From the NCBI RefSeq assembly GCF_000283555.1, contig NC_016012.1:1206639-1238638 (forward strand): 32,000 nt of DNA, in the 5' to 3' direction. The notes under the pieces were generated by a model that did not search any database, was not told the origin of the DNA, and saw only the letters and a list, made by a program, of their open reading frames with translations. The translations under genes and the position numbers were made by a program. Every line of letters begins with the position of its first letter. The first letter of the stretch is position 1. Below, one piece after another: positions 4,725 through 31,401 of the stretch. Origin of the DNA: Candidatus Arthromitus sp. SFB-rat-Yit. GTDB lineage: Bacteria; Bacillota; Clostridia; Clostridiales; Clostridiaceae.

Positions 4725-4765
4725 TAAAAAAAATATGAAGAATAACTTAACAATTATCTTCATAT
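4725..4765 (-). terminator. Intrinsic terminator after the lipoprotein gene
   Basis: On the minus strand the hairpin is ATGAAGATAA..TTATTCTTCAT with one bulge, followed by a T8 run (A-run 4725-4734 on plus). It separates 4777-5325 from the four-gene operon downstream. Confidence 0.5.
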
Positions 4766-4776
4766 TTGAAAATCTT

Positions 4777-5325
4777 CTATTTAGTTGTATACAATAAAAT
4801 ATCACTGAACATTGAATCACTCACATTCTTGATTACTTTCTCGTAGTTATCAAACTGAAGTGATAAATCTATTTTCCCATTTGGGTGATCATACCTATCT
4901 ATATTTTTTATCTCCGTTAAATGAATTATTTCTTTTGAATATCCATTATCGGGCGTAAATACTATTGAATTTCTTGTAACTTCAAAATTTCCCAAAATAT
5001 CAACACCATCTAAATTGTATTTACCATAATATGTATTTTTTATATTAGCTAAATCCTCATCCTTAAATTCCTTTGCTTCAATATATGTACTATTTTCTCC
5101 TCTGCTTTCCATGTTTTCTCTCTTATCATAGGAATTCCTAGAAGTATTTCCCGTATCTCTGTTATAATTTTCAAAAGTTTTTTTATCACTTACACTGCTT
5201 AAAGCACTCTCAAACTTATCAACATTCGCACTTTTTGTACAACTAACCATTATGATTAATATCAAAACCATACAAAATATAATAATAGGTCTTGTTATAT
5301 TAAAAGAATTTCTACCATTGTTCAT
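4777..5325 (-). CDS. Putative lipoprotein, unknown function
   Basis: RBS AAAGGAGAA and a signal peptide ending in the lipobox-like IIMVSC. The mature part is polar (Asn/Ser/Asp-rich). Confidence 0.6.
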   Translation of the reverse strand: MNNGRNSFNITRPIIIFCMVLILIIMVSCTKSANVDKFESALSSVSDKKTFENYNRDTGNTSRNSYDKRENMESRGENSTYIEAKEFKDEDLANIKNTYYGKYNLDGVDILGNFEVTRNSIVFTPDNGYSKEIIHLTEIKNIDRYDHPNGKIDLSLQFDNYEKVIKNVSDSMFSDILLYTTK

Positions 5326-5479
5326 TTTTAAAATTCTCCTTTCTTATAATAATAATTTTTGTTATAATTAGCTTATTTCAATTTAGTTATACTTAAGATT
5401 ATGTATTATATTTCCAGATTTATCGATATTTTATACTAAATATTTTAAAATTAATAATTTTGGAGGATCTTTACCTGAG

Positions 5480-8966: not shown

Positions 8967-10061
8967 TTAATCTCCAAATCCGATCCCCATACTCCTAGAT
9001 ATCTTTACTAACTCATGATCAGGATTAACAAATTTCTCATTTCCAATAACATCTTCAAGCTTTATATATGAAATTTCATCACCATTTAAGCAAACCATAT
9101 TTCCAAACTTTCCTTCATAAATAAGTCTAGCTGCTGCTGCTCCATACCTAGTTGACAAAACTCTATCATATGTTGAAGTGTTTCCTCCTCTTTGGATATG
9201 GCCAAGTATTGTTGATCTAACTTCTTGGTCAGATATTTTCTTCTCTAAGTCACTTGCGAGCTTGTTTGCTATTCCTCCAAATCTTATAGGATCTGGTGAA
9301 TCTTCAACAACTTTTGCAATAACAGTTTCTCCCGAAATAGACTTAGCACCTTCAGACACAACTATTAAAGTATATTTATACCCCTTAGCCTTTCTCTCAT
9401 TTATCTTTTCTATAATTTTATCCAAACTATAGGGTATCTCAGGTATTAAAATTATATGAGCATCACCGGCAATACCAGAATGAAGTGCAATCCATCCCGC
9501 ATTCCTTCCCATAACTTCTGCTATCAAAATTCTATGATGAGATTCAGCTGTTGTATGAAGTCTATCTAAACAATCAGTAACTATTCCTATTGCTGTATTA
9601 AAACCAAAAGTAAAATCCGTAGACCCTAAATCATTATCAATAGTCTTAGGAACCCCCACAACATTAACACCCTTTCGTGCGAAATCTCTTGCTGATGTTA
9701 AAGTTCCATCTCCACCAACTATAACTAAGGCATCTACATTTTCCTTTTTTATATTTTCGATGGCAACGTCCGAAACATCTTTTTTAACCTTTTGTCCATC
9801 TTCTTCTACTACATAATCAAAAAGATTATCTTTATTGGAACTCCAAAGTATAGTTCCACCTTTATGTAAGATATTATCAACTGCACTAATATCAAGGTTC
9901 ATATAATCATTATTGTACAAACCTCTATATCCAAACCTATACCCTATAACTTCATATCCATATTCTAATATAGCTGTTTTTGTTACTGCTCTTATAACTG
10001 CATTAAGACCTGGACAGTCTCCTCCACCTGTAAGTATCGCAATTTTCTTTATTTGATTCAT
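8967..10061 (-). CDS. pfkA: ATP-dependent 6-phosphofructokinase
   Basis: MNQIKKIAILTGGGDCPGLNAVIRA, GGDGT, PKTIDNDL and MGRNAGWIAL motifs. The true start is the ATG at 10059-10061, behind the RBS GGGAGGA. The 37 extra N-terminal codons in the track overlap uppP and look spurious. Confidence 0.9.
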   Translation of the reverse strand: MNQIKKIAILTGGGDCPGLNAVIRAVTKTAILEYGYEVIGYRFGYRGLYNNDYMNLDISAVDNILHKGGTILWSSNKDNLFDYVVEEDGQKVKKDVSDVAIENIKKENVDALVIVGGDGTLTSARDFARKGVNVVGVPKTIDNDLGSTDFTFGFNTAIGIVTDCLDRLHTTAESHHRILIAEVMGRNAGWIALHSGIAGDAHIILIPEIPYSLDKIIEKINERKAKGYKYTLIVVSEGAKSISGETVIAKVVEDSPDPIRFGGIANKLASDLEKKISDQEVRSTILGHIQRGGNTSTYDRVLSTRYGAAAARLIYEGKFGNMVCLNGDEISYIKLEDVIGNEKFVNPDHELVKISRSMGIGFGD

Positions 10062-10096
10062 AGTAATCCTCCCAATATCTGAGTACACTGAGATTA

Positions 10097-10125
10097 ATTG
10101 TAACATAAAACATAAAATGTGTAAA
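10097..10125 (-). promoter_or_regulatory. Sigma-A type promoter for pfkA
   Basis: Minus strand: TTTACA (10125-10120), a 17-nt spacer, then TACAAT (10102-10097) with a TGn extended -10. It lies about 35 nt upstream of the pfkA start. Confidence 0.55.
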
Positions 10126-10137
10126 TATGTTAACCCC

Positions 10138-10974
10138 TTATACTTTAATAATATTAAGATTAACAAGTACAATAAGAAGTATTGCTATTACTATCCTATA
10201 ATACGCAAAATATTTCATAGGATATTTTCTCAAAAATTTCATAAAAATATCAACAACTAAAAGTGCAACCAAAAATGCAACTAAAAATCCAACTATAAGT
10301 GCAATTCCATGAGAAAATGTAAAATTTGAATAATCCGTACCTAAAAGTTCATATGCTGATGCCCCAATCATAGTCGGTATTGCTAAAAAAAATGAAAATT
10401 CTGCTGCAAGCTTTGTTGAACATCCAAATATCCAAGCTCCAGATATAGTAGATGATGATCTACTCATTCCAGGACACAAAGATAAAACCTGAAAGCATCC
10501 AATTCCAAGTGCTTGTTTGAAATTTATGTTTTTTATATCACACGTTTGCTTGTCTACATTTTTAGTTGAGAAATACTTTTCAACAACTAAAAGTATAATT
10601 CCTCCAATAATGAGTCCAAGTGAAACACTAAATGTATTGAATAATTTAGCTTTAATTATATCATCTACTAAGACTCCAATAATTGCAGATGGTAAAAATG
10701 CTATAATTATATAAAACCACATCTTAAATCCATATTCTTTTAAGTGTATAATCGAATCTATAATTTTTTTTCTATACAAAACCATAATAGCAATGATTGC
10801 TCCTAATTGTATAACAATCTCATACATATGTGCAAAATTAACACCACTAGTTTCGACAAAGTTTATTATATCTCCTACAATTATCATGTGACCAGTCGAT
10901 GATACAGGCAAAAACTCAGTTATACCTTCAACAATTGCAATTATAACTGATTTTAATAATAACAAAACCTCCAA
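10138..10974 (-). CDS. uppP: Undecaprenyl-diphosphate phosphatase
   Basis: The signature EGITEFLPVSSTGHMII, PGMSRSSSTISG, and a polytopic membrane profile. I favour the TTG at 10972-10974 as the start (RBS AAAGGGGGA, 9 nt upstream; N-terminal length matches other UppP). The ATG at 11013 is possible but has almost no RBS spacing. Confidence 0.85.
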   Translation of the reverse strand: MEVLLLLKSVIIAIVEGITEFLPVSSTGHMIIVGDIINFVETSGVNFAHMYEIVIQLGAIIAIMVLYRKKIIDSIIHLKEYGFKMWFYIIIAFLPSAIIGVLVDDIIKAKLFNTFSVSLGLIIGGIILLVVEKYFSTKNVDKQTCDIKNINFKQALGIGCFQVLSLCPGMSRSSSTISGAWIFGCSTKLAAEFSFFLAIPTMIGASAYELLGTDYSNFTFSHGIALIVGFLVAFLVALLVVDIFMKFLRKYPMKYFAYYRIVIAILLIVLVNLNIIKV

Positions 10975-13964: not shown

Positions 13965-15305
13965 ATGAAAAAAATACTATCAATTATAATAACAAAAATA
14001 GCTATTATAATTTTAAAATTAATGAAAAAAGGAAGCTCATTCCCCGGCAAAATCGCTCTAAAAATTTGTCCAGATATATTAAAACACGTATCTAAAAATG
14101 TAGATACAATTTTAATCACAGGAACAAATGGAAAAACAACAACAACTGCTCTAACAAATCACATATTTAACAATGCATTTATTAATTGTTTTTCAAATTC
14201 TACAGGGGCAAATATGTTACCTGGAATAGTCTCAACTTACATAAAAAACTATAGTTTATTTAATAAAAAAATTTCCAAGACAGCCTTAATAGAAGTAGAC
14301 GAAGCAAGTTTAAAACACATATGCAAATTCATAGAACCAAAAATAATTGCTGTTACAAATATTTTTCGGGATCAACTAGATCGTTATGGTGAAGTATATA
14401 CAACTCTAAACCATATAAAAGAAGGAATAAAGTTATGCAATAACTCAAAACTCATATTAAATGGAGATGAACCTCTTTTATGTTCTCTTAAAAAAGTATA
14501 TAACAGCAAATATTATTTTGGATTTGATAATTATAAAGACACTTCACATGACAAAAATTTAAACGTGGAGGCTATCAACTGTAAGTTTTGCGGATCACCA
14601 TATGAATATAAATTTGTAACTTATAATCATTTAGGAGATTTTAAATGTAGTAAATGTGATTTTAAAAGAGAGCAACTTGATTTTTCTATTGCAGATGTTT
14701 TAGAAAGCAATATAAATGAAAGCATTATAAAAATCAAGAATAATATACTCACAATAAACCAAGGAGGAATTTACAATATATATAACACTCTTTGTGCGTA
14801 TGCAATAAGTTCTGTTTGTAGCATACCTGATTATATTATTGTCGATTCCATAAAGACATTCTCAAATGTATTCGGTCGTCAAGAAACTTTCAAGATTAAA
14901 AATAAAAACATAACTATGTTTCTTGTAAAAAATCCTGCAGGATTCAACGAAACATTAAACACTATAAATTTAGATAAACAAAATGAATTATCCCTTGGAT
15001 TTTTGTTAAATGATAACTTCGCAGATGGTCAAGATATATCTTGGATATATGATGTAGACATCGAGATGATAAACGATTTTAAATTAAAAGATGTGTTTAC
15101 AGGTGGAATTCGAACGCATGACATGGCACTTAGGCTAAAACTTGGAGAAGTTCAAAACATAAATGTATTTGAAAAGTATGAAGAAATTTTGGAAAACTTA
15201 GAAAGCAAAGAAAACGAAACCATTTATATTCTTTGTAGTTATACTTGTATGCTTGAGTTTAGAAGATTTTTGTATGGAAAAAAGTACATAAATTCAATTT
15301 GGTAA
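13965..15305 (+). CDS. murT: Lipid II isoglutaminyl synthase, Mur-ligase-like subunit
   Basis: The Mur ligase P-loop ITGTNGKTTTT, the Cys4 ribbon CKFCGSPYEY...FKCSKCDF characteristic of MurT, and a C-terminal DUF1727-like part. It is immediately followed by gatD. Confidence 0.85.
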   Translation: MKKILSIIITKIAIIILKLMKKGSSFPGKIALKICPDILKHVSKNVDTILITGTNGKTTTTALTNHIFNNAFINCFSNSTGANMLPGIVSTYIKNYSLFNKKISKTALIEVDEASLKHICKFIEPKIIAVTNIFRDQLDRYGEVYTTLNHIKEGIKLCNNSKLILNGDEPLLCSLKKVYNSKYYFGFDNYKDTSHDKNLNVEAINCKFCGSPYEYKFVTYNHLGDFKCSKCDFKREQLDFSIADVLESNINESIIKIKNNILTINQGGIYNIYNTLCAYAISSVCSIPDYIIVDSIKTFSNVFGRQETFKIKNKNITMFLVKNPAGFNETLNTINLDKQNELSLGFLLNDNFADGQDISWIYDVDIEMINDFKLKDVFTGGIRTHDMALRLKLGEVQNINVFEKYEEILENLESKENETIYILCSYTCMLEFRRFLYGKKYINSIW

Positions 15306-15322
15306 ATTAGGAGAGTTTTAAT

Positions 15323-16048
15323 ATGGAAATAACAATACATCATTTCTACCCCAATTTATTAAATACATATGGTGATATTGGAAATATCTTAGCCTTAAAG
15401 AAAAGATGTAAAGATAGAAATATAGATGTTAATATAAATAACATCAAAATAGGAGATGATATTTCTTTAAATATCGGAGATATAGTATTTATTGGTGGTG
15501 GACAAGATTTTGAACAATCTCTCGTTGTAGATGATTTATTATCGAAAAAGGAAATATTGAAAAATTTTATAGAAGATAATGGATGCGTGCTTGCTATATG
15601 CGGTGGGTATCAACTTCTTGGAAAGAGTTATACAACTCAAAATGGAGATATCATAGAAGGACTTGATATATTAAATATTTACACAGTTGCCTCTGAAGTT
15701 CGCAAAACAGGTAATATCATAATAAAAAACGAGGAAACTGGGGAAACTTATGTAGGATTTGAGAATCATTCAGGAAACACATATATAAATGATCACACCC
15801 CACTTGGAAAATGCTTAATTGGTTTTGGAAACAATGGAGAAGATTCCTATGAAGGAGTTACATATAAAAATACAATATGTACATATATGCACGGTCCACT
15901 TCTTCCAAAAAATAGAGAACTAACAGATAGATTAATATCAAATTGTTTAAAATTAAAATATGAAGATTTCATAGAACTAGATGACATTGACTCTACATAT
16001 GAAGATAATTGCAAAAATTCTTTATTAAATAGATTTGACATAAAATAA
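15323..16048 (+). CDS. gatD: Lipid II isoglutaminyl synthase, glutaminase subunit (CobQ/GATase1-like)
   Basis: The nucleophile elbow ICGGYQLLG and a C-terminal HGP motif. Its size and its position after murT both fit GatD. Confidence 0.85.
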   Translation: MEITIHHFYPNLLNTYGDIGNILALKKRCKDRNIDVNINNIKIGDDISLNIGDIVFIGGGQDFEQSLVVDDLLSKKEILKNFIEDNGCVLAICGGYQLLGKSYTTQNGDIIEGLDILNIYTVASEVRKTGNIIIKNEETGETYVGFENHSGNTYINDHTPLGKCLIGFGNNGEDSYEGVTYKNTICTYMHGPLLPKNRELTDRLISNCLKLKYEDFIELDDIDSTYEDNCKNSLLNRFDIK

Positions 16049-16087: not shown

Positions 16088-17335
16088 ATGAGAAGACTTA
16101 AGAGGAAATTTTTTATATTTATATTTACTATTTTTACAACAATTTTATATACAACAAATATTTCTCTAGCTACAACGCCCTATACTTACAAAATAACGCT
16201 CGAAGAAGATATACAGTTTGTACACGAAACAATAATAGACTACGATGGTAATGGAAACAATCAAGAAATAAATTACATCGAATTTGACTTAAACAACAAA
16301 AACATTTCATTATCACTTATTAAAGCAAATAACTTAACGGCATCAAAGGAAACTTTATTAAACCAATTAAATGCTTCTGAAAGTATAACAGGTAAAAACA
16401 TAATAGGAGGGATCAACGGAGATTTTTTTCAAATTTCAAATGGTCAACCACTTTTTACAACAATATCAAATGGTGAAATATTCTCTATAACAGGCGATCC
16501 TTCTGATTATTTAAAAAGACCTGTATTTTATATAGACAAATCTGGTAACTACGATTTTGATTATTTATATATAAATGGAACGCTTAAATTTCCAAAAAGT
16601 TCGTTTAAAAATTTAACTATAGACTCTATAAACAGGCTTGATTCATACAAACATACGAACATATCAAATTACAAAATTAATGAAGAGTCAACATACTACC
16701 CACATGAAGGCATACCTTCTAGATATATGTTAATAGAGCTTTTTAACAGTGATGGAAGTATCATTGCTGGAACAACAATATATGGAAAAGTAATTGATGT
16801 GGGGGAAATGAATGAACCTAAAGAAATTAGAAAGAATGAAATTTTAATTACTTCCTATGGGGATGATAATTATTATGATATAAATTACACATTTTTAAAT
16901 GAAATTGTTTCCTTAAATTTTGATATTTACTCTACTAATCAAGGTAAATTTAAAAATGATATTGTAAGTGCCTTCACGGGACACGAATATTTAATATTAT
17001 CCGGAGAAGAAATGAACATTAATTATTATAAAACCCTAGGTGATACGGCTTTTATTTCAGGGCGTCACGCAAGGACAGCTTTAGGCATAACAGATGATAA
17101 TAAACTAATATTATTTACAGTTGACAAATCAAATAATAGTGCAGGCATGACACTTTCTGAGCTAGCAAGATATTTAAAATATCTTCACGTAACTTCTGCG
17201 ATAAACTTAGATGGTGGAGGATCAACCTCAATAGTACTTGAAAATAATACATATGATTTAAACTTAATGAACGATCAAACAAAATATCAAAGAGAAATAA
17301 CAGATGGAATTGGAATAATAATAAATAAGGCGTAG
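16088..17335 (+). CDS. Secreted phosphodiester glycosidase family protein (NAGPA/DUF2233-like)
   Basis: Signal peptide (..TNISLA-TT). The blocks GGINGDFF, RTALGITDDNKLILFTVD and NLDGGGSTS are typical of the 'uncovering enzyme'-like phosphodiester glycosidase domain. Confidence 0.7.
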   Translation: MRRLKRKFFIFIFTIFTTILYTTNISLATTPYTYKITLEEDIQFVHETIIDYDGNGNNQEINYIEFDLNNKNISLSLIKANNLTASKETLLNQLNASESITGKNIIGGINGDFFQISNGQPLFTTISNGEIFSITGDPSDYLKRPVFYIDKSGNYDFDYLYINGTLKFPKSSFKNLTIDSINRLDSYKHTNISNYKINEESTYYPHEGIPSRYMLIELFNSDGSIIAGTTIYGKVIDVGEMNEPKEIRKNEILITSYGDDNYYDINYTFLNEIVSLNFDIYSTNQGKFKNDIVSAFTGHEYLILSGEEMNINYYKTLGDTAFISGRHARTALGITDDNKLILFTVDKSNNSAGMTLSELARYLKYLHVTSAINLDGGGSTSIVLENNTYDLNLMNDQTKYQREITDGIGIIINKA

Positions 17336-17360
17336 ATTTAATATCTACGCCTTTTATTAT
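17327..17360. terminator. Intrinsic terminator between convergent genes
   Basis: AAGGCGTAGAT-TTAAT-ATCTACGCCTT followed by TTTATTATTTT. It overlaps the stop codon at 17333-17335 and is usable from both directions. Confidence 0.7.
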
Positions 17361-17401: not shown

Positions 17402-20400
17402 CTACCATTCAAAATTTATTTTTTGAGCTAAATTTTTAAGTTCAGTTTCATTAACCATTCTATCAGCTATAGCTTGAAGAGTTGCAGTAGCTGATCCATA
17501 AACTGCTAATAATTTTTTATATTCTTCAACCCAGAATGCTTTTCCTTGAGTATCAGAATCTCTATTAACTATAGCATTATATAATGCTTCTACTTTAGTT
17601 TCAGCAGTTGTATATATTTTCTCAAATTCTCTCTCATTTATCATATTCAACAAGAATGCTCTTAGAGAAACTCTCTTATTGCTTAAGTTGTCTAAATGGA
17701 ACATATATCCATTTTCATCAGCTGGCCTATTAAATACTACATTATAAACGTTAGCTAAATAGCTTTGTCCTTCATTTGTAGCGTTAATTTTTACATTTTT
17801 AAGGAATAAAGTTCTAGTTCTGTTATTTCTATCATTGTAATTAATACTTATCTCAACGTAATCTTTTCCTGGAACTAGTCCATCAACAACTACTCTTCCA
17901 TTCTCAAATCTAACTTTAACATTTGAGTATTGGTCATTAGTTTCAGTTACAGTTTTACCATCTTTATCTTTATATTTAAATCCAGCAATTGAAGGATTTG
18001 AATTGCTTTCGTGATGGTAAGTTCCTGAAGGTAGAGTCACACTTATTGAATTTGAACCTGTAGTTGAGTTAGTTCCTGTTACATTTACTGTAGTAGAAGA
18101 AGTTGATGAAGAACTACCTGAAGAACCGCCAGATATTGTTCCACTATTTGATGAAGTTGGCTTAGTTGTAACTGTTAAAACATTAGATTCAATCGTATCA
18201 TTATTTAGTGGATCATTTGTTTCATTATAAGTATAAACTGCTACAAATTCATACTTTGTATTAGCCTTTAATCCAGAAACAACCTTAGTTATTACACCAT
18301 CTTTTATATCTTGTGGAATAGCTAAATCAAGTTCTTTATATGGATTATTAGTTCCAGCTTCCCTATAACTAATATAAGCTGCTTTTACACCAGTTGTAGC
18401 ATTTCCAAAGAAATCAGCATCAATTTCTAAAGTAACTGAAGATGATGTTGTACCATATTCATCAATGTATATTGTTATAGGCTGATTGCTTACAATTACT
18501 CCAGCACTATAAGTTCCTTGATATTTTCCTGTACCCACAACATTATTAATTGCATGACTTCCCTCTTTAAATTGATCAAAAGTAACTCTATCACTAGTAA
18601 TAGTATCTACAGTAACTTTACCACCAGTAGGCACAGTAGTTCCAAAACTTGCATCAACTTTAAACTGATCAGTTATATTTTCCATTCCTTGGTTTGTAGC
18701 CTTAACACTTGTTAAATTAACTGATTCAACAGCTCCGCCAGTCAAATCTACTTCTCCTGTCGCAGTTTTATCTCCTATTTTAAGAGTCCAATCAGCATCA
18801 TTATTATTTGGAACTTGTCCATTAAACTGAACATCGAACACTAAATCTTTACCATTACTCTTTGTACTATTAACTGTAGCCTTACCACCATCAACTGTTA
18901 ACAATGCTTTAGTATAATCTGCTGAACCAACAAATTTAGTCAACAACTCAGTACCACCAGGTATTGTAATTTGTCCTTCAGAAGAACTAGTCTTAACAAA
19001 GCTAGCTTGTACAGCAGCACCATCAATCTTATCAGTTGAAATTATTAATGATGTTTTAACAGTACTTGCTAATCCTGGAGTAAACTCTGATTTTACCTGA
19101 GTTGCACCAGCGTCTAATGATTGATTTCCACTTTCAACTTTTGCTTTATCATCAGTATCATTATACTCAAATATAACTGGTATAGCTTGATATCCATGTT
19201 TAAAACTATCTACATTTAATTTAACTTGAGCATTTACATCTATCCCAATAAAGTCCGTTTTTCCATTTTGGATATCTACATAAGCATAAGTAGTAGTACC
19301 ACCACCTGGAACACTAGTTGTTGCTGCAACTGTTACCCCACTAAATGCATCAAAATATACTGCACTACCATGTCCATCTATATTAAACGAATGTTTACCT
19401 ATCAACGCAGTAGCACTCGTAGTAGCATTACCCCCTGCTTGAGGAGCTACAAATCCATAACTTGCCTCAGGTGTAGGAACAAAATTATCTTCAAGAGCTG
19501 TAGCATCATTAGCCAGTTTTGCAGATTCTACAGTAACTGTAACCTCTTTACCTGTTGTAGGATCTATCTTTAATTTTGCTCCCCCAACTTTAGCTGTGTT
19601 ACCTGTAGTTTCTTCCATAACTGTTTGTACATACGTCAACAATGGAGCACTTCCAAGTTGTATTCCATAACTAGACTTATCTTTTTCATGAGTTGGAAGC
19701 GTTGGTGCAGTGGCTTCACCAAAATCAGTTTTTATAGTATCTGCTAAAGTTCCCATATTAGTTGAATCATTAGTAGCAGTAACTCCTTTAATTGAAGAAT
19801 TTTGATCTTCAAATAAAATAATATCTGAAGTTAAAGTATACTGACCGTTTCCATAAGTAACATCTACTTTTATTGTATCATTTAAATCCAAGTTTCCGTT
19901 TTTACCTAACTTTAATAAGCTTACTGTATAATTTCCAGTAGTAGTATCTTTAGTAAGATCAAATCCTTTTGTCGCATCTGTTCCTATATAAGCAGTAACT
20001 TTCTCTGGATTAAAAGTAGTAATATCTTTTGAGCCATTATTAAATTTAAGATTCTTCACTACAAGCTGTCCTGTAGTTATATCAGTATCAAAACTTATAG
20101 TATCGCTTGGTTTCTTAACTAAACTTAAAGTATACTTTTCTGTACTATTATCTTTATAAGTTACAGTAACATCTCCAGTATAAATTCCTGGGTCAGTCAT
20201 TCCACTTACAGTTAATTTTTTTGTAGTACTATCCCAAGCTCCAGTAGCACCATTTCCGTTAGTCTCGATATTTACTCTTTCATCAAAAATTTTATGAGCA
20301 AATGTACCAGCGTCAATCTTATTTACATTATTAAAATCTAAATTCTTAAACGTAACTTCTGCGTTACCATTTGTAGTAACCTCAACAGATGTTTCTAAGT

Positions 20401-20563
20401 ATTTTATTTGCAAAGCATCTAACTTAGCTGCTAAATCTGCACTCAATCTTGAATCTTGAGCGTGTGCTATTACTGCTTGTCTACCTACTGTTCCAACAGT
20501 AACCATTAAAGAATTTATTCCAAGTGCTGCTGCTAAAGCAAGCGCTACTCTTTTTTTATTCAT
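17402..20563 (-). CDS. Large secreted surface protein (candidate S-layer protein) with C-terminal tandem DUF4214-like repeats
   Basis: Start at ATG 20561-20563 (RBS GGAGG). The signal peptide is MNKKRVALALAAALGINSLMVTVGTVGRQAVIAHA-QD. The mature protein is Thr/Gly/Asn/Val-rich with no Cys. It has repeated Ig/FN3-like segments, a Ser/Thr linker, and a C-terminal 120 aa with two [FY]xxxYxxxxxRxxDxxGxxxW-type repeats. Confidence 0.8.
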   Translation of the reverse strand: MNKKRVALALAAALGINSLMVTVGTVGRQAVIAHAQDSRLSADLAAKLDALQIKYLETSVEVTTNGNAEVTFKNLDFNNVNKIDAGTFAHKIFDERVNIETNGNGATGAWDSTTKKLTVSGMTDPGIYTGDVTVTYKDNSTEKYTLSLVKKPSDTISFDTDITTGQLVVKNLKFNNGSKDITTFNPEKVTAYIGTDATKGFDLTKDTTTGNYTVSLLKLGKNGNLDLNDTIKVDVTYGNGQYTLTSDIILFEDQNSSIKGVTATNDSTNMGTLADTIKTDFGEATAPTLPTHEKDKSSYGIQLGSAPLLTYVQTVMEETTGNTAKVGGAKLKIDPTTGKEVTVTVESAKLANDATALEDNFVPTPEASYGFVAPQAGGNATTSATALIGKHSFNIDGHGSAVYFDAFSGVTVAATTSVPGGGTTTYAYVDIQNGKTDFIGIDVNAQVKLNVDSFKHGYQAIPVIFEYNDTDDKAKVESGNQSLDAGATQVKSEFTPGLASTVKTSLIISTDKIDGAAVQASFVKTSSSEGQITIPGGTELLTKFVGSADYTKALLTVDGGKATVNSTKSNGKDLVFDVQFNGQVPNNNDADWTLKIGDKTATGEVDLTGGAVESVNLTSVKATNQGMENITDQFKVDASFGTTVPTGGKVTVDTITSDRVTFDQFKEGSHAINNVVGTGKYQGTYSAGVIVSNQPITIYIDEYGTTSSSVTLEIDADFFGNATTGVKAAYISYREAGTNNPYKELDLAIPQDIKDGVITKVVSGLKANTKYEFVAVYTYNETNDPLNNDTIESNVLTVTTKPTSSNSGTISGGSSGSSSSTSSTTVNVTGTNSTTGSNSISVTLPSGTYHHESNSNPSIAGFKYKDKDGKTVTETNDQYSNVKVRFENGRVVVDGLVPGKDYVEISINYNDRNNRTRTLFLKNVKINATNEGQSYLANVYNVVFNRPADENGYMFHLDNLSNKRVSLRAFLLNMINEREFEKIYTTAETKVEALYNAIVNRDSDTQGKAFWVEEYKKLLAVYGSATATLQAIADRMVNETELKNLAQKINFEW

Positions 20564-21305
20564 ATTATTTTTTTGCCTCCATTTTTTATTTGAAATCAAT
20601 ATTTTCTTATTCTTATGTAAATATTAACTATGCAAGTTGTTCCATAGAAGTTCCAAATCCTTTTTACAAATCATCTTCATACTTCCAAATCCCCAACTAA
20701 AAGTTATATTTTATCATCTATCTACTCATTTGTTAGACTCTGTTTTATCAAAATAATTATAAAAACCTATTTTTTCGCTTGATTATCAATTTTAATAGTT
20801 TAACATTGTTTATTGCTTGTCCATTTACTAAACCTAGCAATGATACACTACCATGTCGAAATTCATTAAAATATCTTGAAAACAAAACTAAATAACTAAA
20901 ATTTCCTATTATTAAAATAATATTTTTTTCGGTTTTATGTCAAACTTTCCAGTAAAAAGATAAAACTTCTCCTCAAAAATTTTATCTGCATTGTTATACA
21001 ATATAAACTTAGAGAATTCTTTCTACATGTTCCCTCCAATTAACTCAAACATAAAGAATTGCATTAATTTTTATAAAATAATAACAATTACATTACAATA
21101 TTACTACATTTTTTATACTAAAGTCAACCTATTTTATAATTATTTTCCTAAAATATATACTTGTTTCCCTATATTTTATAGTAAAATATTTCATATTTCA
21201 TAAACTATAATTGCTCATAATACCCGAAACCTTAAGTTAATTTAACTAAAATTTTATTTATAAAATCTAAAAATGTTATACCATACTAATTTTAAATAAA
21301 ACAAA

Positions 21306-21332
21306 TAGTCATTTGAAAATTTCAAATGACTA
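21306..21332 (-). terminator. Intrinsic terminator at the end of the glycosyltransferase gene
   Basis: A perfect 11-bp stem, TAGTCATTTGA-AAATT-TCAAATGACTA, that includes the stop codon. On the minus strand it is followed by TTTGTTTTATTT. Confidence 0.55.
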
Positions 21333-22313
21333 TACAAACAAAAACAAATTATAAAGATGTCTATACCCAAAATCCATAAGCTTACTTTCTATTATTTTAA
21401 TAAAACCAATCCCACTAAATATTGCAGTTCTACTACTCTCATATTTGAATACATCCTCACCCATAAAACAATTAAAACCATACTCATCTATAAATCTACA
21501 TTTAACATCTGGATAATATCTCTGCATTATATCATTAATAATCATTATAATATCTTTTTCATACACAATAACTATGTTCTCAAAATTTCTTAAAACATTA
21601 TCAAACAAATAAATCAACTTAAGCTCAAAATTTCTATACATCATTTCTAATTTATTCTCAGGATTAAGCGATGTATTTGTTTTATGAACTCTATAATTAT
21701 AAACCACATCAGGTAAATTTCCTATCTTAAACCCTGCATTATGAAATTCAAGATAAATAAGCTTATCCTCAATAATCGAAAACTCCTTCTTAAATGGCAT
21801 AAGTTTTATAAATAAATCACGTCTACCGAATAACCCTCCCCCGTTTATACAAGACCCAGAATATATCCTTAAAAATTGAATATCTTCATTTAGAATTTCA
21901 TAATTAAGAGTTTCCATCATTTTCATATAAAGCTTGCTACCATTACCAAAACTCTTTAAATAACATCCTATAAGATCATAATTACCCTCTTTTAAATACT
22001 TAAGTTGCTTCTCATACCTATAAATCTCATTAATATCATCTCCATCACACCTTGCAATATATTTTCCACGAGAAAGCAAAACTCCAACCTTCATAGCCTC
22101 ACATATTCCACCATTTCTTTTTGTTATAACCCTAATTCTTTCATCCTTTTTTTCATACTCTCTTAAAATATTGTAACTCCTATCTGTAGAACCATCATCA
22201 ACCAAAATTATATCTAAATTAGTATGAGTTTGATTAACAATACTATCAAGTGTATCCCTTAAATAAATTTCATTATTATATACTGGTACAATAACACTTA
22301 TTAAATCCTCCAT
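21330..22313 (-). CDS. Family 2 glycosyltransferase (GT-A fold) with an uncharacterised C-terminal extension of about 110 aa
   Basis: ISVIVPVYNNEIYLRDTLDSIVNQTHTNLDIILVDDGSTD is the canonical GT2 N-terminus, and a DGDD (DxD) motif is present. RBS AAAGGGGA lies 9 nt before the ATG. Confidence 0.85.
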   Translation of the reverse strand: MEDLISVIVPVYNNEIYLRDTLDSIVNQTHTNLDIILVDDGSTDRSYNILREYEKKDERIRVITKRNGGICEAMKVGVLLSRGKYIARCDGDDINEIYRYEKQLKYLKEGNYDLIGCYLKSFGNGSKLYMKMMETLNYEILNEDIQFLRIYSGSCINGGGLFGRRDLFIKLMPFKKEFSIIEDKLIYLEFHNAGFKIGNLPDVVYNYRVHKTNTSLNPENKLEMMYRNFELKLIYLFDNVLRNFENIVIVYEKDIIMIINDIMQRYYPDVKCRFIDEYGFNCFMGEDVFKYESSRTAIFSGIGFIKIIESKLMDFGYRHLYNLFLFV

Positions 22314-23482: not shown

Positions 23483-25648
23483 TTACTCTACTCTTAATCC
23501 AAGACTATATAAGAAGTTTCTAGTTTCTGACTCACCAAGCATTCTTTCAGATATAGCCTGCATAGCCGCAGTTCTATCTCCAACTTGTGCAATTGTTTCT
23601 TCTAAAGTCTTAACCCACCAAGCAAGTCCTTCAGAATCTGATGTTCTTCCTGTAACAGATCTATACATACGCTCTACGTACTTAGTATTATCTAAGTTTT
23701 TCTCTTTATATTCTTGTTCGTTAACTATATTAGACGTGAAATAATTAACTGAAAACTCTTGTGAAGAAAGTTTTGATGTCCAATATGCCATTCCATCTGG
23801 ATCACCATCTCTTAAGAAGAATATATTATAGAAACCTTCAATCCACTCTTTTGCATTTGTAATTTTCTTAGTTGTAAATGGCTCTATATCCATAGCTAAC
23901 TCTTGTCCATCTTTAAGCACAACTACTAATTCAAGTCCTTCAGTTAAATTGTTTGGAATTATTCCATATAACTTAACTAAATTCTCTTTAGTATCATAGA
24001 ATGAACTTGCAATTGAATCTCCAACAATTGAAACATCTTTTATAATTCCATTTGGATCATTAAATAATATTTCAAATTCCGCTTTAGTTGGAGTAACATT
24101 CTTAAGTTCAAATGATTTTAATAAATCTCCTTCTTCTCCAGCTGAAGTACCATTTCCAAGTGTTCTTATCGTCATAGGATTTACAGAAATAACATCATAA
24201 TTTGTAAACCTTCTGTTTATATCACCATCTCCAGAGTTAAACGTAACAATTAATTCCGTAAACTTATAATCTGTTCCAGACTTTAACCCTGTTATCAATA
24301 AATCTTTATACTCAGAGGCATTTTTTTGAGGATCCTTTAAAGTATTATCAAGTTTAGCATAAGACTGCATAGATCCAATTTTAGTATCCTCTTTTAAAAT
24401 CTTACCATCATAAAGATTTCCTTCCGAATCCTTTACTTGTATTCTCTTTATTGTATCCTCAGGATCATATAAAGCATCATAAAGTACTACTCCATCCTCC
24501 AAAGGTCTAACGTTAGCATGATTATATCCTTGTGCTTTATCTTCTTCTGAAAATGGACCAATATAACGGATTATATTATCATCAGTTGATACAATCTCAC
24601 CTTTATCATCTACATCAACATTAACAAAATAAGAAACTGTAGGTTTAATTGCTAAAGGATCTAATGGATTTGTATTATCAATATTTATATTCTCTGTTAA
24701 TAGAGGATCTAAATAAGGAATTATTCCTTTTTTACCTTCTATAGCAGTTTGAGTTGATGTTTTTTGAACTACACTCTTGTCCACAAGTGTTGGAAAAATC
24801 AAAGAACCACCAAAAGATATATTAGTTATCTCAGATCCTGTTGGTAATCCATAAATCTTAAAATAAATATTCCCTTCTTTGTCTACAATTTTAGGAGCAT
24901 TATAAACATTTGTATACTGATTTATCTTACCTGTTGTGGTATCCATAACTAAATCCTCAATTGATATCTTTTTAGTTTCAGTTTTAGCACCACTTGTATA
25001 TGTCACATTAAGTGTAAAATCTTTATTCACCAAATTGCCTGACTCATCTTTCATACCAAGTGAATTTTGTATAATTGTCGCAAGAGTTTCTTGTTGAACT
25101 AATTCAATCTGAGAACCCTTTCCACTTGATAAAATATTTAAATTCTTAGTATATTCATTAACAGCTGCATCTATATTAGACTTCAAAGCAGCTTCAACAT
25201 TACCCGAAAACTTAACCTTGATATAAGCATATCCACCTGTTGATTTATCCCTTAAGTACGATTTTTGATAACCTTGCATATCTTCTCTTGCTACAACTGA
25301 AGTATTTCGAATTACCCCACCTTCAACTCCAGTTATTGTTAAAAACTGCTCTTCTGCATTTACTGACGAAGAAGATTTAACAAAATCTTCCGTTCCTTTT
25401 AATGGTAAAACTTCGTTCTCATCATACTTACCATTACCATTAAAATCAACTGCACCTGGATTCGTTCCAGCTGGCAACTCCATGTTTGAAAGGTTAATCG
25501 TAAATTGGCTATCCCCTTCAACATATCTACTTTGCTGTGCTGGTACAGCCCAAGCAAATTTCGAACCGATATGAGTCATCACACCTGAAGCAACAGATAA
25601 AGATAAAAATATCCCGATTAATTTCTTCATAAATTTTTTACTAAACAT
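23483..25648 (-). CDS. Secreted surface protein with C-terminal tandem DUF4214-like repeats (paralogous C-terminus to 17402-20563)
   Basis: RBS AAGGAGGA and signal peptide ..HIGSKFAWA-VP. The mature protein has no Cys. An FN3-like segment precedes the C-terminal 120 aa, WIEGFYNIFFLRDGDPDGMAYW...YVERMYRSVTGRTSDSEGLAWWVKTL... Confidence 0.8.
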   Translation of the reverse strand: MFSKKFMKKLIGIFLSLSVASGVMTHIGSKFAWAVPAQQSRYVEGDSQFTINLSNMELPAGTNPGAVDFNGNGKYDENEVLPLKGTEDFVKSSSSVNAEEQFLTITGVEGGVIRNTSVVAREDMQGYQKSYLRDKSTGGYAYIKVKFSGNVEAALKSNIDAAVNEYTKNLNILSSGKGSQIELVQQETLATIIQNSLGMKDESGNLVNKDFTLNVTYTSGAKTETKKISIEDLVMDTTTGKINQYTNVYNAPKIVDKEGNIYFKIYGLPTGSEITNISFGGSLIFPTLVDKSVVQKTSTQTAIEGKKGIIPYLDPLLTENINIDNTNPLDPLAIKPTVSYFVNVDVDDKGEIVSTDDNIIRYIGPFSEEDKAQGYNHANVRPLEDGVVLYDALYDPEDTIKRIQVKDSEGNLYDGKILKEDTKIGSMQSYAKLDNTLKDPQKNASEYKDLLITGLKSGTDYKFTELIVTFNSGDGDINRRFTNYDVISVNPMTIRTLGNGTSAGEEGDLLKSFELKNVTPTKAEFEILFNDPNGIIKDVSIVGDSIASSFYDTKENLVKLYGIIPNNLTEGLELVVVLKDGQELAMDIEPFTTKKITNAKEWIEGFYNIFFLRDGDPDGMAYWTSKLSSQEFSVNYFTSNIVNEQEYKEKNLDNTKYVERMYRSVTGRTSDSEGLAWWVKTLEETIAQVGDRTAAMQAISERMLGESETRNFLYSLGLRVE

Positions 25649-25794: not shown

Positions 25795-26919
25795 TCAGTT
25801 ATTCGAAATCAATTTCATATACTCTTTACTCGATTCCATATTTAAAAACTTATCCAAAAGTTCAATTTTACTCTCATCAACAGTCTCCTTATTAGAAAAT
25901 TTTTCATTAAACTCTTCCAAAGTGATTATTGACACTCTTCCATTTATTATTTTTTTATTAGCTAAAAAATAAATACTATCAACTATCTCTTTATTAGTTG
26001 TATTTATTAAATCAAATTCATCACTCAAAATAATTTCACTCAATATACTCTTTATATCAACTACATTATTTAAAACATTATATAAATTTTGAGAATACTC
26101 TTTTTCAGTTGGATATCTCTTTAAAACTTGAGAATAAATTTTAACAAAATAATTTTCAAGTTCTGAACCATAGTCCATTAAAAGTTTTGAAATTATAAAC
26201 TTTATTTTATTTTGATCCTTATCGTAAGAAACTATTTCCACATTCAAATACTGCTTTCCTGGAATCAAATTGCCAATTATTAATTTGTTGTTATTCTTAT
26301 CATAATTTACACTTAAACCCGAAACTTTATTTCCATTAAAATCAGCTGTAATTGTAAATTTTGAATTTGGATCTATGTTAATATTTTCCGGAATATCAAC
26401 CGAACTAGTTACTCCCTTTGTTGTGTAACCATTAAGTGCAAAAACATTTTCAAAATTTTGATATAACTCATCTTCTATATTAATCATTAAAATATCACTC
26501 ATATAAATTTTATCTCCTTTTTTAAGTGACATCTTCAAATACAAATTTACATTCTTATCCAAGAAATCCAGATTTTTGTATAAATCCTTATCAAAATTTT
26601 CATCAATTTTAATATTAAATCTCTCTATGTAACTATCTTCTGTATTAATATCTTTAGTATGAATGGAAAAAATATAATCTTTTAAATTTTTAGAATTAAT
26701 TTCATTCAAATTATACATAATGTAATTAATTAAATCATTTTTAGTTAGTTTATTAGTATTGATAGGTGATAAAAATAGCTTATCATCTTTTATACCAATA
26801 AATTCTTTACCCAAAATTTTTGTATCTACAGTTTTTAATATGAAATCTAAATTTATAGTTACAAGAAGTATACAAATAAAAACAACTATACCAATAAAAT
26901 TACGTAATTTATAATTCAA
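25795..26919 (-). CDS. N-terminally membrane-anchored protein with a degenerate copy of the same C-terminal cassette
   Basis: TTG start 9 nt after GGAGG, and a TM anchor FIGIVVFICILLVTINL. The segment LIIGNLIPGKQYLNVEIVSYDKDQNK resembles GLVPGKDYVEISINYNDRNN of the 1053-aa protein. It is followed by YFVKIYSQVLKRYPTEKEY...ILSDEF, a degenerate DUF4214-like repeat. Confidence 0.65.
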   Translation of the reverse strand: MNYKLRNFIGIVVFICILLVTINLDFILKTVDTKILGKEFIGIKDDKLFLSPINTNKLTKNDLINYIMYNLNEINSKNLKDYIFSIHTKDINTEDSYIERFNIKIDENFDKDLYKNLDFLDKNVNLYLKMSLKKGDKIYMSDILMINIEDELYQNFENVFALNGYTTKGVTSSVDIPENINIDPNSKFTITADFNGNKVSGLSVNYDKNNNKLIIGNLIPGKQYLNVEIVSYDKDQNKIKFIISKLLMDYGSELENYFVKIYSQVLKRYPTEKEYSQNLYNVLNNVVDIKSILSEIILSDEFDLINTTNKEIVDSIYFLANKKIINGRVSIITLEEFNEKFSNKETVDESKIELLDKFLNMESSKEYMKLISNN

Positions 26920-26985: not shown

Positions 26986-27978
26986 TTAATTTTCTATATA
27001 TTTATCCTTAAGTACCAAATCCACCCAGTTCAAATTACTCAAATACCAATTTATAGTATTTCTAATTCCTACTTCAAAATCAGTTATACACTTAAATCCA
27101 AGCTCATTATATATTTTACTACTATCAACTGAATATTTTAAATCATGCCCTAATCTATCATCTACATAAGTTATAAGAGAATAATCTTTATTTAACAATC
27201 TAAGTATTTTCTTTATCAAACTCAAATTATCAATTTCATATCCAGAGGATATATTATATATTTCTCCTTTTTTGCCTTCTTTTATAATCTTATCAATAGC
27301 CATAGAATGATCATGAACATACACCCAATCACGTATATTTTTCCCATCGCCATATACAGGTATCTTATTACCCTTGAGTGCATTTACAATAACAACAGGT
27401 ATTAACTTTTCTGGAAATTGATATGATCCATAATTATTTGTACATCTAGATATTGTTACATTAAGTTTAAACATCTTAAAATAACTCATAACTAACATAT
27501 CCGCTGATGCCTTTGAAACTGAATAAGGTGAAGATGGTCTTAATATATCTCCTTCTTCAAAACTTTTATCATCCTCTAATTTCAAATCACCATATACTTC
27601 ATCAGTTGAAATTTGATGATATCTATTAACACCATACTTCAAACACATATCCATCAAATTCTTAGTTCCTATAATGTTAGTTTCTAAAAATACTTGTCCA
27701 TTATATATTGATTTATCTACATGAGATTCTGCAGCAAAATTTACTACAATATCGAAATCTTCATTTTGAAAAACTTTATCCAAAAAATTATTATCTAAAA
27801 TATTCCCTCTATAAAATTTAAAATTTATATTTTGTCTAACAAGCTCTAAGTTTTCAAGATTCCCCGCATATGTCAATGCATCTATACAAGTAACATATAT
27901 ATCCCTATATTTGTTAATCATATAGTGAATAAAATTGCTTCCTATAAACCCTGCTCCACCTACTACACAAATTTTCAT
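26986..27978 (-). CDS. rfbB: dTDP-glucose 4,6-dehydratase
   Basis: GGAGFIGSNF, AAESHVDKS, STDEVYGDL, PSSPYSVSKASADM (the YxxxK motif), NNYGSYQFPEKLIP and DRLGHDLKY. The protein is collinear with E. coli RfbB throughout. Confidence 0.9.
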   Translation of the reverse strand: MKICVVGGAGFIGSNFIHYMINKYRDIYVTCIDALTYAGNLENLELVRQNINFKFYRGNILDNNFLDKVFQNEDFDIVVNFAAESHVDKSIYNGQVFLETNIIGTKNLMDMCLKYGVNRYHQISTDEVYGDLKLEDDKSFEEGDILRPSSPYSVSKASADMLVMSYFKMFKLNVTISRCTNNYGSYQFPEKLIPVVIVNALKGNKIPVYGDGKNIRDWVYVHDHSMAIDKIIKEGKKGEIYNISSGYEIDNLSLIKKILRLLNKDYSLITYVDDRLGHDLKYSVDSSKIYNELGFKCITDFEVGIRNTINWYLSNLNWVDLVLKDKYIEN

Positions 27979-29996: not shown

Positions 29997-30014
29997 TCTT
30001 TCAAGAAAACTAGT

Positions 30015-30046
30015 CCTTTAATTTTAGTCCAGAGAGACTAACAAGG
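30015..30046 (+). promoter_or_regulatory. PyrR-binding anti-antiterminator hairpin (PyrR binding site RNA)
   Basis: CCTT-taatt-TTAGTC-CAGAGA-GACTAA-c-AAGG. The core AGUCCAGAGAGACU matches the conserved PyrR box ARUCCAGAGAGGYU with one G-to-A change, and it sits in the expected stem / internal loop / stem context. Confidence 0.75.
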
Positions 30047-30090
30047 CCTTATACGAATGTGTTTTTACATAATTAAAAATAATTCATTTT

Positions 30091-30118
30091 ATAACGGCCT
30101 TTTGGCCGTTATTTTTTA
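30091..30118 (+). terminator. Attenuator (intrinsic terminator) in the codBA leader
   Basis: ATAACGGCC-TTTT-GGCCGTTAT followed by T5, 42 nt upstream of the codB ATG. AAGGCC (30043-30048), which overlaps the 3' side of the PyrR hairpin, can alternatively pair with GGCCTT (30096-30101) as an antiterminator. Confidence 0.75.
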
Positions 30119-30159
30119 TGCTAGTTTGATAAAAATTTAATACGATTGGAGATGGCTAA

Positions 30160-31401
30160 ATGGATAAAAATAAAATTTCAGATATGGATTATTCTTTATC
30201 TTCCGTAGATTCTAAAGACAGAAAAGGGTTCTTTTCAATATTTGTTATAATGCTAGGATTCACATTTTTCTCTGCAAGTATGCTAACAGGTGCAACCATT
30301 GGAGTTTCTCTAAATTTAAATGACTTCCTAAAATCTATATTAATTGGAAACTTAATTCTCTCTATATACACAGGACTATTATCATACATAGGATCTGATA
30401 CTGGATTATCGCTACACCTATTAACTAAATATTCATTTGGATTAAAGGGATCTTATCTCCCATCATTCATTACAAGCATAACTCAAATAGGATGGTTTGG
30501 TGTAGGTATTTCAATGTTTGCAATACCCATATCAAATAGATTCAATATAAACCTTTATGTTCTTGTTCTAATAACAGGAATCTTAATGACTAGTACCGCT
30601 TACTTTGGAATGAAATCACTTACTATATTAAGTGCAATAGCTGTACCTGCTATTGCAATACTCGGTGGTCTATCACTACTTATAGCAATTCAATCAATTG
30701 GTGGATTCGGCGAACTATATAGTATAACTCCAACAAATCCGATGAATTTAATAACTGCAATAACTTTATGTATTGGATCTTTTATAAGTGGAGGTACTGT
30801 TACTCCAGACTTTACTAGATTTTCAAAAACAAAGAAAATCGCGGTATCAACAACAGTAATAGCTTTCTTTATTGGTAACTCCTTAATGTTCTTATTTGGT
30901 GCAGTTGGTGCAATGGTTACCGGAAATTCTGATATAGCTGATGTAATGTTCTCTCAAGGCCTTATTATACCAGCTATAATTGTACTTGGACTTAATATAT
31001 GGACAACAAATGATAATGCGATATATACAGCAGGTCTTGGACTCTCTAATATAACAAAAGTTAAAAAAAACAAATTAGTATTGATAAGTGGTTTAATTGG
31101 AACTCTCGGCTCTATATGGATTAATAATAATTTTACATCTTTCCTAACTTTATTAAATTCAATGCTACCTCCAATCGGAGGTGTTGTCATCGCAGATTAC
31201 TTTTTCATAAAGAAACTCAAATACGATAAAATAGAAATTGCAAAATTCAAAGAGGTTAATCCAATAGCTATAATATCATTTATTATTGGATTTTTAGTTG
31301 CAAATTTTATATCATTTGGTATACCTGCCATAAATGCTATTATTTCAACAATAATTATTTATATTATTGGAATGAAAATTTTTAAAAATAAGGATGTGTA
31401 A
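30160..31401 (+). CDS. codB: Cytosine permease (NCS1 family)
   Basis: Collinear with E. coli CodB: LGFTFFSASM, IGNL..IYT, TQIGWFGVGISMFAIP, GSFISGGT.TPDF.RF, LGLNIWTTNDNAIY and PPIGGVVIADY. Confidence 0.88.
   Translation: MDKNKISDMDYSLSSVDSKDRKGFFSIFVIMLGFTFFSASMLTGATIGVSLNLNDFLKSILIGNLILSIYTGLLSYIGSDTGLSLHLLTKYSFGLKGSYLPSFITSITQIGWFGVGISMFAIPISNRFNINLYVLVLITGILMTSTAYFGMKSLTILSAIAVPAIAILGGLSLLIAIQSIGGFGELYSITPTNPMNLITAITLCIGSFISGGTVTPDFTRFSKTKKIAVSTTVIAFFIGNSLMFLFGAVGAMVTGNSDIADVMFSQGLIIPAIIVLGLNIWTTNDNAIYTAGLGLSNITKVKKNKLVLISGLIGTLGSIWINNNFTSFLTLLNSMLPPIGGVVIADYFFIKKLKYDKIEIAKFKEVNPIAIISFIIGFLVANFISFGIPAINAIISTIIIYIIGMKIFKNKDV

Follow-up and report, generated by a model that had tools for sequence, protein, structure and literature searches.

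We analysed a window of 32,000 nucleotides from the segmented filamentous bacterium (SFB) Candidatus Arthromitus sp. SFB-rat-Yit (NC_016012.1, positions 1,206,639 to 1,238,638), an AT-rich stretch with a GC content of 21-35%; all positions below are those of the window unless a locus is named. Its subject is a minus-strand gene for a large secreted protein, which a first, sequence-only reading had proposed as an S-layer (surface-layer) or major surface protein lacking any classical Gram-positive anchor. In all likelihood it is the P3340 / Th17Ag gene of rat SFB, coding for an abundant cell-wall-associated surface antigen that a C-terminal DUF4214 cassette would hold on the wall. The gene and the parts of its product are the following.

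17402..20563, minus strand: coding sequence of the 1053-residue DUF4214 protein, ATG start; BAK81633.1 / WP_014095093.1; orthologue of mouse P3340 / SFBNYU_003340
20576..20580, minus strand: GGAGG ribosome-binding site, 13-17 nucleotides before the ATG; kept in mouse
20459..20563, minus strand: Sec signal peptide, residues 1-35, predicted cleavage between AHA and QD
18164..20413, minus strand: variable ectodomain, residues 51-800, a chain of Ig/FN3-like beta-sandwiches, mostly at a predicted local distance difference test score (pLDDT) of 80-95
18800..18844, minus strand: rat peptide LVFDVQFNGQVPNNN, residues 574-588, aligned with mouse LVFDVQFSGAVPNKT, 11 of 15 positions identical
18164..18445, minus strand: FN3-like domain, residues ~707-800, weak match to the Ihog FN3 profile, beta-sandwich in the model
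18098..18163, minus strand: disordered Ser/Thr/Gly-rich linker, residues 801-822, pLDDT <50 for residues 804-821
17789..18097, minus strand: conserved beta domain with the motif GLVPGKxY, residues 823-925, forming the C-terminal cassette together with the helical module
17405..17788, minus strand: C-terminal DUF4214 module, residues 926-1053, two half-repeats, eight helices, phycobilisome-linker-like fold; proposed non-covalent wall anchor
17327..17353, no strand assigned: bidirectional intrinsic-terminator hairpin, common to the antigen gene and the convergent NAGPA gene

The open reading frame (ORF), as called, runs on in frame to a TTG at 20599. The spacing of the GGAGG site and the start MNKKRVAL, which is present in all 39 aligned orthologues with M1, N2 and K3 invariant, identify the ATG, and not this TTG, as the start, so that the start codon read from the bare sequence was correct. 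The Sec signal peptide was equally well recognized: its hydrophobic core spans residues 5-23, A33, H34 and A35 of the predicted cleavage site are invariant among the 39 orthologues, and residues 1-38 have a pLDDT <50 in the AlphaFold2 model. The mature chain would comprise 1018 residues (~109 kDa, pI 4.85) with no Cys, and the residue counts (T 135, V 92, G 89, N 84, A 83, with Ser also prominent) agree with the earlier description of a Cys-free chain of about 1020 residues rich in Thr, Gly, Asn, Val and Ala. The suggestion that the codon usage is less AT-skewed than that of the neighbours points the wrong way. The GC content at third codon positions (GC3) is 0.125, the lowest among the 26 ORFs of the window (0.16-0.25 in the others), and the total GC of 0.326 is raised through codon positions 1 and 2 because of the Thr, Gly, Ala and Val content, that is, the amino-acid composition. 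The effective number of codons (Nc) of 33.9 marks the strongest codon bias in the window, with T-ending codons preferred and C-ending codons almost never used; this is compatible with high expression and is no proof of it. Together with the GGAGG site, two conserved promoter-like sites and a long leader, it makes high expression plausible. A second terminator-like hairpin at 21305-21333 ends the upstream GT2 glycosyltransferase gene. The shared terminator, a coding-free gap of 766 nucleotides and this hairpin make a monocistronic unit plausible, in agreement with the terminator and the coding-free upstream region of about 0.75 kb that the first reading had described.

The protein is 100% identical to BAK81633.1 (P0001) of Candidatus Arthromitus sp. 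SFB-rat-Yit, which is titled 'DUF4214 domain-containing protein'; none of the NCBIfam models matches it. A homologue search returned ~60 full-length homologues with 32-80% identity, all of ~1010-1130 residues. The mouse-SFB homologue P0020 scored 1074 bits; both AID45212.1 and EGX28318.1 / BAK80293.1 (= SFBNYU_003340) fall into its 90%-identity cluster. A well-characterized homologue, mouse SFBNYU_003340 / AID45212, was thus found at 54% identity and 100% coverage. AID45212 is the protein expressed as the 'mouse-SFB-NL homolog' of the major Th17 antigen (PMC12780176), and the epitope seen by the 7B8 T-cell receptor (TCR) comes from SFBNYU_003340 (PMC12738396). The antigen gene belongs to this already known P3340 / Th17Ag family and is not a new anchorless S-layer candidate. 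Gene order is identical between rat and the mouse-NL chromosome over 17 genes (locus L001), beginning with cytosine permease, adenine deaminase, RmlB, a 374-residue protein, a DUF4214 protein of ~720 residues, a 298-residue protein and GT2, and continuing with the leader, the orthologue, NAGPA, GatD, MurT, a protein of ~300 residues, a TPR protein, BacA and phosphofructokinase. This match makes the antigen gene the positional orthologue of P3340. The core of GT2, orthologue, NAGPA, GatD and MurT is present in seven further SFB lineages (L003-L009).

Rat protein and mouse P3340 / SFBNYU_003340 / AID45212 are alike in full-length homology, length, signal peptide, domain order and neighbourhood. 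They also share the C-terminal DUF4214 cassette, with 82-86% identity over the last 150 residues, but identity falls to 22-40% in the N-terminal and central parts of the ectodomain. The mouse orthologue P0020 contains, without any change, the SFBNYU_003340-derived peptide LVFDVQFSGAVPNKT that has been used for Th17-cell stimulation (PMC6642154). This peptide is not present as such in the rat protein, which carries LVFDVQFNGQVPNNN at the aligned position and differs there at 4 of 15 residues; the peptide defines the mouse antigen, not orthology. The CD8 epitope SGLIYVTL of SFBNYU_003240 is not encoded anywhere in the window.

Conservation within the protein peaks in the C-terminal module. Pfam DUF4214 (PF13946), whose cut-off is 23.2 bits, matched it at 38.8 bits in the whole protein and at 46.3 bits when the module was scanned alone. 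In the full-length AlphaFold2 model, which was computed from 39 orthologues (mean pLDDT 78.5, predicted template modelling score (pTM) 0.59), residues 931-1048 form an eight-helix C-terminal domain, and the module alone (128 residues, modelled on 45 diverse sequences) reached a pLDDT of 94 and a pTM of 0.84. It is an internal duplication of one motif, seen as ..VYNVVFNRPADENGY.. and ..LYNAIVNRDSDTQGK..FW. A Foldseek search of the PDB with the module gave phycobilisome linker domains for all of the top 37 matches, with template modelling (TM) scores of 0.5-0.6 and a probability >=0.98. DUF4214 and the phycobilisome linker belong to the same Pfam clan. The modelled fold of the module matches that of the linker domain (PF00427; PDB 3OSJ, 2KY4, 3PRU), with TM scores of 0.55-0.60, a probability of 1.0 and 118-126 residues aligned, but the sequence identity is only 12-21%. 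The linkers work in the cyanobacterial cytoplasm, where phycobiliprotein rings are their binding partners; functional equivalence is not implied. The link to the phycobilisome linker 2KY4 was noted earlier by Pamp et al. 2012 (PMC3371716) and is reproduced here.

What had been read as a large, secreted, Cys-free and surface-associated protein without classical Gram-positive anchors is indeed that. An LPXTG-like motif was absent in a regular-expression search, the C-terminus being an amphipathic helical domain, and SLH, CWB2, LysM, GW and choline-binding repeats had no Pfam match at E<=1. The C-terminal DUF4214 domain, in contrast, had been missed; the profile search gives it as a candidate anchor, as proposed in PMC12780176, PMC7474095 and PMC3371716. 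SFB are reported to have no sortase, and this C-terminal motif was postulated as an alternative anchor (PMC7474095, PMC3371716). Nineteen secreted proteins with the C-terminal module were counted in mouse SFB (PMC3371716) and at least 14 in human SFB (PMC7474095), and DUF4214 has been called a 'likely surface-anchoring' domain (PMC12780176). We propose that the apparently missing anchor is this DUF4214 cassette, as the SFB literature has already suggested, the mechanism itself being putative. In its favour count the Pfam score, the high conservation of the C-terminal 250 residues, the place of the module at the extreme C-terminus of two neighbouring secreted proteins as well as of unrelated ones, and the all-round label that mouse SFB showed after hot Triton treatment (PMC12780176).

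An exhaustive HMMER search with the module yielded 1823 representative clusters at E<=1e-3, which include two classes. One carries a single-copy module at the extreme C-terminus of proteins of 113-1824 residues, whose N-terminal parts are unrelated and mostly unannotated; this arrangement was seen in dozens of proteins that are otherwise unrelated. The other class has 6-11 Pfam DUF4214 stretches per protein, together with choline-binding repeats, Big_2, BspA-type leucine-rich repeats, RHS repeats or a sortase domain, which are typical surface-protein contexts. With the short module as query, two homologue searches gave no more than 2-5 fragments, and a genome-contig scan found three loci in non-SFB Clostridia and none in SFB. 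A metagenome-assembled genome of Candidatus Dwaynia gallinarum, a non-SFB member of the Clostridia from chicken gut, contains two tandem ORFs of ~630 residues (L010, 2465-6367). The first of these ends in a single-copy C-terminal module with 41% identity, and the single-copy form is therefore not confined to SFB.

Between the signal peptide and the cassette, the model shows a chain of beta-sandwiches. Foldseek matched the full-length model in the PDB only to generic Ig/FN3 chains of eukaryotic ectodomains, at low TM. The FN3-like segments that had been suggested near the C-terminus are weakly supported, by an Ihog FN3 profile match (E 0.0056, residues ~718-783), the beta-sandwiches of the AlphaFold2 model and these Foldseek Ig/FN3 chains, but Pfam fn3 has no match in the protein. 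The two tandem repeats of about 100 residues described near the N-terminus are better seen as neighbouring beta-sandwich domains: hhalign gave them a probability of 8.5%, and BLASTP found nothing in register. We rejected this N-terminal D1/D2 tandem repeat after profile-profile comparison of 10 predicted segments and direct BLASTP, neither of which was significant. The chain is followed by the disordered linker (Ser and Thr make up 56% of residues 801-850), beyond which lies the small beta domain, whose GLVPGKxY motif is also found in the consensus of the 45 module-bearing proteins. Conservation across 38 orthologues is ~70% in the signal peptide, 22-35% in the N-terminal and central ectodomain, 40-49% in residues 500-700 and 55-72% in the last 250 residues. 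The same gradient has been described for the human-SFB orthologue (PMC7474095).

Upstream of the gene, the following leader and promoter-like elements were found.

20564..21329, minus strand: non-coding leader and promoter region, 766 nucleotides, sense strand without ORF
21098..21127, minus strand: distal sigma-70-like promoter-like site P1 (TTGACT-18-TAATAT), conserved in seven SFB lineages
21066..21100, minus strand: block of ~35 nucleotides, TATTGTAATGTAATTGTTATTATTTTATAAAA.., overlapping the -10 and +1 region, almost fully invariant in 7 of 7 SFB lineages
20914..20943, minus strand: proximal promoter-like site P2 (TTGACA-18-TATTTT), with a conserved GTTTGAC..AAAAC -35 region and a -10 of TATTTT/TATTAT

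Blocks of the leader are ~95% identical between rat and mouse over some 230 nucleotides, although the proteins are 54% identical. Across seven lineages the distal site reads TTGACT-17/18-TATTAT (TAATAT in rodents), and the block TATTGTAATGTAATTGTTATTATTTTATAAAA is kept with proteins that are only 32-54% identical. A single copy of the block was found in the window, and likewise in each SFB locus compared; the conserved leader elements lie in the window at 21066-21127 and 20914-20946, in L001 at 9440-9650, in L003, L004 and L006 at ~5640-5870, in L005 at 5536-5715, in L007 at ~790-1010 and in L008 at ~995-1215. The tandem promoter-like sites would give a 5' untranslated region of ~530 or 345 nucleotides in rat, with predicted transcription starts at ~21090 and ~20907. 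The leader has no Rfam family match, and a riboswitch or structured RNA was rejected on this ground and on that of RNAalifold, which over five lineages gave -3.6 kcal/mol with an unfavourable covariation term. A regulon search with the leader block found its 26-mer absent from the metagenome collection, and the 17 matches of a 20-mer of the block were set aside as unrelated chance matches.

The neighbouring genes that bear on the protein are these.

21330..22313, minus strand: GT2 glycosyltransferase, the next gene upstream; in other SFB lineages 2-4 GT2 genes and a TylF-type methyltransferase occupy this position
16088..17335, plus strand: secreted Cys-free phosphodiester glycosidase, NAGPA domain (PF09992); convergent, shares the terminator and adjoins the orthologue in every SFB locus examined
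23483..25648, minus strand: secreted 721-residue paralogue with the same C-terminal DUF4214 module; Pfam 50.4 bits, 32% identity over 113 residues, E 8e-21
25795..26919, minus strand: 374-residue ORF with an N-terminal hydrophobic segment, a degenerate beta-domain (GLVPGKxY) and a DUF4214-like cassette; 26% identity over 108 residues, E 6e-11, no Pfam match

Judged by its sequence, the ORF at 25795-26919 brings the cassette family in the window to three members. Immediately upstream of the SFB orthologue there are always GT2 genes, a single one in rat and mouse and two to four elsewhere; in L003-L006 this upstream group lies at 1300-5560, and non-rodent lineages also have a TylF-type methyltransferase of 622 residues. 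A gene for dTDP-glucose 4,6-dehydratase (RmlB) lies near the antigen gene in rat and mouse (26986-27978 in the rat window). The GT2, TylF and dTDP-glucose 4,6-dehydratase genes may make a wall polymer or glycan tied to the DUF4214 proteins, the link between the upstream GT2 gene and the antigen protein being putative. On the other side, the MurT/GatD peptidoglycan-amidation genes (13965-16048) stand beside the NAGPA gene. In turkey-type and several other SFB, a second paralogue of ~1093 residues follows the orthologue at a distance of ~320 nucleotides (L003 9439-12717; L004 9428-12709; L006 9542-12823; L008 4803-8087; L009 3778-7059); it is absent in rat and mouse. The orthologue and paralogue of turkey SFB are 18-44% identical in the N-terminal 600 residues and 62-98% in the last 400, and this closer C-terminal part suggests concerted evolution or gene conversion, or else strong constraint on the anchor end. 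Elsewhere in the window, a PyrR-binding-site RNA (Rfam 55.3 bits, gathering score 54) lies at 30011-30119 on the plus strand, just upstream of the cytosine permease gene (30160-31401). The phosphofructokinase ORF (8967-10172, minus strand) is called from a TTG as 401 residues and overlaps the BacA gene; its mouse orthologue is called at 364 residues, and the true rat start is therefore probably further downstream.

From these elements we envisage the following course. The precursor would be exported by the Sec pathway and its signal peptide of 35 residues then removed. The C-terminal cassette, comprising the small beta domain and the two-repeat helical DUF4214 module, would hold the protein non-covalently on the wall without a sortase. 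The likely ligand of the cassette is a wall glycopolymer, for which the adjoining GT2 and RmlB genes (TylF in other lineages) are candidate makers. The long N-terminal chain of Ig/FN3-like beta-sandwiches would point outward, and it is here that the sequences show rapid divergence from one host-specific SFB lineage to another. If it behaves like its mouse orthologue, the rat protein would lie beneath the S-layer of the intracellular offspring and the hair-like layer of the filaments; the mouse-SFB literature further suggests that the filament tip would be its main site of exposure, that enterocytes would take it up there and that it would then be the dominant T- and B-cell antigen.

Several observations weigh against this account. 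The data on localization, uptake and immunology all come from mouse SFB, and the rat protein deviates from the published SFBNYU_003340 peptide at the four positions given above. Wall anchoring by SFB DUF4214 domains is itself putative. An amidase domain was found in 0 of the 45 module-bearing proteins, and the published link to SFB peptidoglycan hydrolases was not reproduced. A preprint on Psh, an RTX-DUF4214 protein of P. putida, speaks for a glycan anchor in proposing that Psh binds the lipopolysaccharide (LPS) O-antigen and in reporting that >80% of homologues adjoin O-antigen or type I secretion system (T1SS) operons, but the binding is based on genetics and in-silico docking (10.64898/2026.09.02.748959). 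Furthermore, the sole solved relatives of the fold, the phycobilisome linkers, make protein-protein and not glycan contacts, which leaves a protein partner for the module as a real alternative. In that case the module would dock onto a wall-bound protein scaffold, or onto the outer layer from below, much as the linkers of the phycobilisome dock into phycobiliprotein rings. All of its significant structural neighbours are such connectors, and no carbohydrate-binding fold or motif was detected. We nevertheless regard docking onto a protein as unlikely, given that the module occurs on at least 14-19 SFB surface proteins and in 1823 clusters of many architectures, a spread that a common wall ligand fits better than a specific protein partner. 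The adjoining glycosyltransferase genes and the O-antigen binding proposed for a DUF4214 protein (10.64898/2026.09.02.748959) point the same way. A module that non-covalently binds a wall glycopolymer is what these patterns favour.

A different question is whether an SFB surface layer is built from the antigen protein itself, which the DUF4214 domain would then anchor. Cryo-electron tomography of mouse-SFB-NL and rat-SFB-Yit has revealed an S-layer of ~8 nm spacing on the intracellular offspring, which is replaced by a hair-like layer on filaments; the molecular makeup of both layers is undefined, and Th17Ag was tested as a candidate for the hair-like layer (PMC12780176). A subunit of either layer might be a protein of ~109 kDa that is acidic, Cys-free and rich in Thr, Ala, Val, Gly and Asn, with the signs of high expression described above (a codon bias stronger than in any other ORF of the window, tandem promoter-like sites, a long leader), a conserved anchor and a variable outer part, and, in non-rodent SFB, a tandem divergent paralogue with a much closer C-terminal part. 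It has also been described as abundant and ubiquitous on the cell (PMC12780176). Yet a nanobody and a polyclonal serum labelled intact mouse-SFB filaments almost only at the tip (the label being confined to it in 93% of the labelled filaments), the label did not coincide with the hair-like layer, and only 30% of S-layer-bearing offspring were labelled. All-round labelling needed disruption of the outer layer: once fixed cells had been treated with 0.5% Triton at 95 °C, label from the serum covered most of them over their entire surface. The authors concluded that the protein is an abundant cell-wall-associated one, masked by the S-layer in offspring and by the hair-like layer in filaments (PMC12780176). 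Moreover, it is present in both developmental forms although the layers replace one another, and no S-layer protein is among the 50 best PDB matches to the full-length model. The mouse localization thus does not support the S-layer proposal from which the analysis started. It is the only direct evidence and speaks against that proposal, but it is not airtight: the nanobody epitope maps towards the C-terminus (PMC12780176), an end that in a layer would lie hidden at the base, and for this reason, and with the composition of both layers undefined, we leave a layer subunit a slim chance. The same slender odds apply to its boldest form, in which the P3340 family would be the building block of one of the two SFB surface layers, the DUF4214 cassette a new class of S-layer anchor binding a polysaccharide from GT2/RmlB/TylF, and the tip-only label a consequence of buried C-terminal epitopes. 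Least probable of all, in our view, is a host-specific adhesin or effector whose variable beta-sandwich region binds a receptor of ileal enterocytes at the filament tip. The mouse orthologue is exposed at the attachment tip and taken up into enterocytes (PMC12780176, PMC7474095), the strong divergence of the ectodomain between SFB of different hosts matches SFB host specificity, and Ig/FN3 chains are typical of adhesins; but immune selection explains the divergence equally well, receptor binding is putative, the protein is spread over the whole cell wall rather than the tip alone, and tip-restricted disordered hair-like structures, not the antigen protein, are the attachment candidates considered by the authors (PMC12780176).

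As a putatively wall-held antigen with a DUF4214 cassette, the rat protein resembles two known systems in part. In C. difficile, the CWB2 domains of SlpA and the Cwp proteins bind the wall polysaccharide PSII. The likeness to these is a functional analogy only: a Sec-exported family with one conserved non-covalent wall-binding module, variable passengers and genes beside wall-glycopolymer genes. Unlike them, the rat protein has no CWB2, its module is a helical phycobilisome-linker fold at the C-terminus with a putative ligand, and its mouse orthologue appears under the outermost layer instead of forming it. Psh of P. putida KT2440 shares with the rat protein a C-terminal helical DUF4214, secretion with retention at the surface, and a gene that adjoins surface-glycan biosynthesis genes, a glycan-binding role having been proposed for its DUF4214 (10.64898/2026.09.02.748959). 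It differs in its Gram-negative host, in type I secretion and RTX repeats as opposed to Sec and Ig/FN3, and in its function, the masking of a phage receptor.

P3340, a well-studied protein behind the Th17 and antibody responses of the gut to SFB, is the model commensal antigen of mucosal immunology and the source of the 7B8 TCR and of tetramer reagents. As the orthologue of P3340, the rat gene explains the puzzle of a large secreted protein without a classical anchor, a puzzle already raised in the SFB literature. To this our analysis adds a model that gives the anchor module a phycobilisome-linker fold with high confidence, a sharp gradient between conserved anchor and variable ectodomain across ~40 SFB lineages, a leader element almost entirely invariant across lineages, a constant linkage of the antigen gene to glycosyltransferase genes and, in non-rodent SFB, a tandem paralogue with a much closer C-terminal part. 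The residual value of the locus lies in the still putative anchoring mechanism, together with the leader element, the tandem paralogue and the glycosyltransferase linkage.

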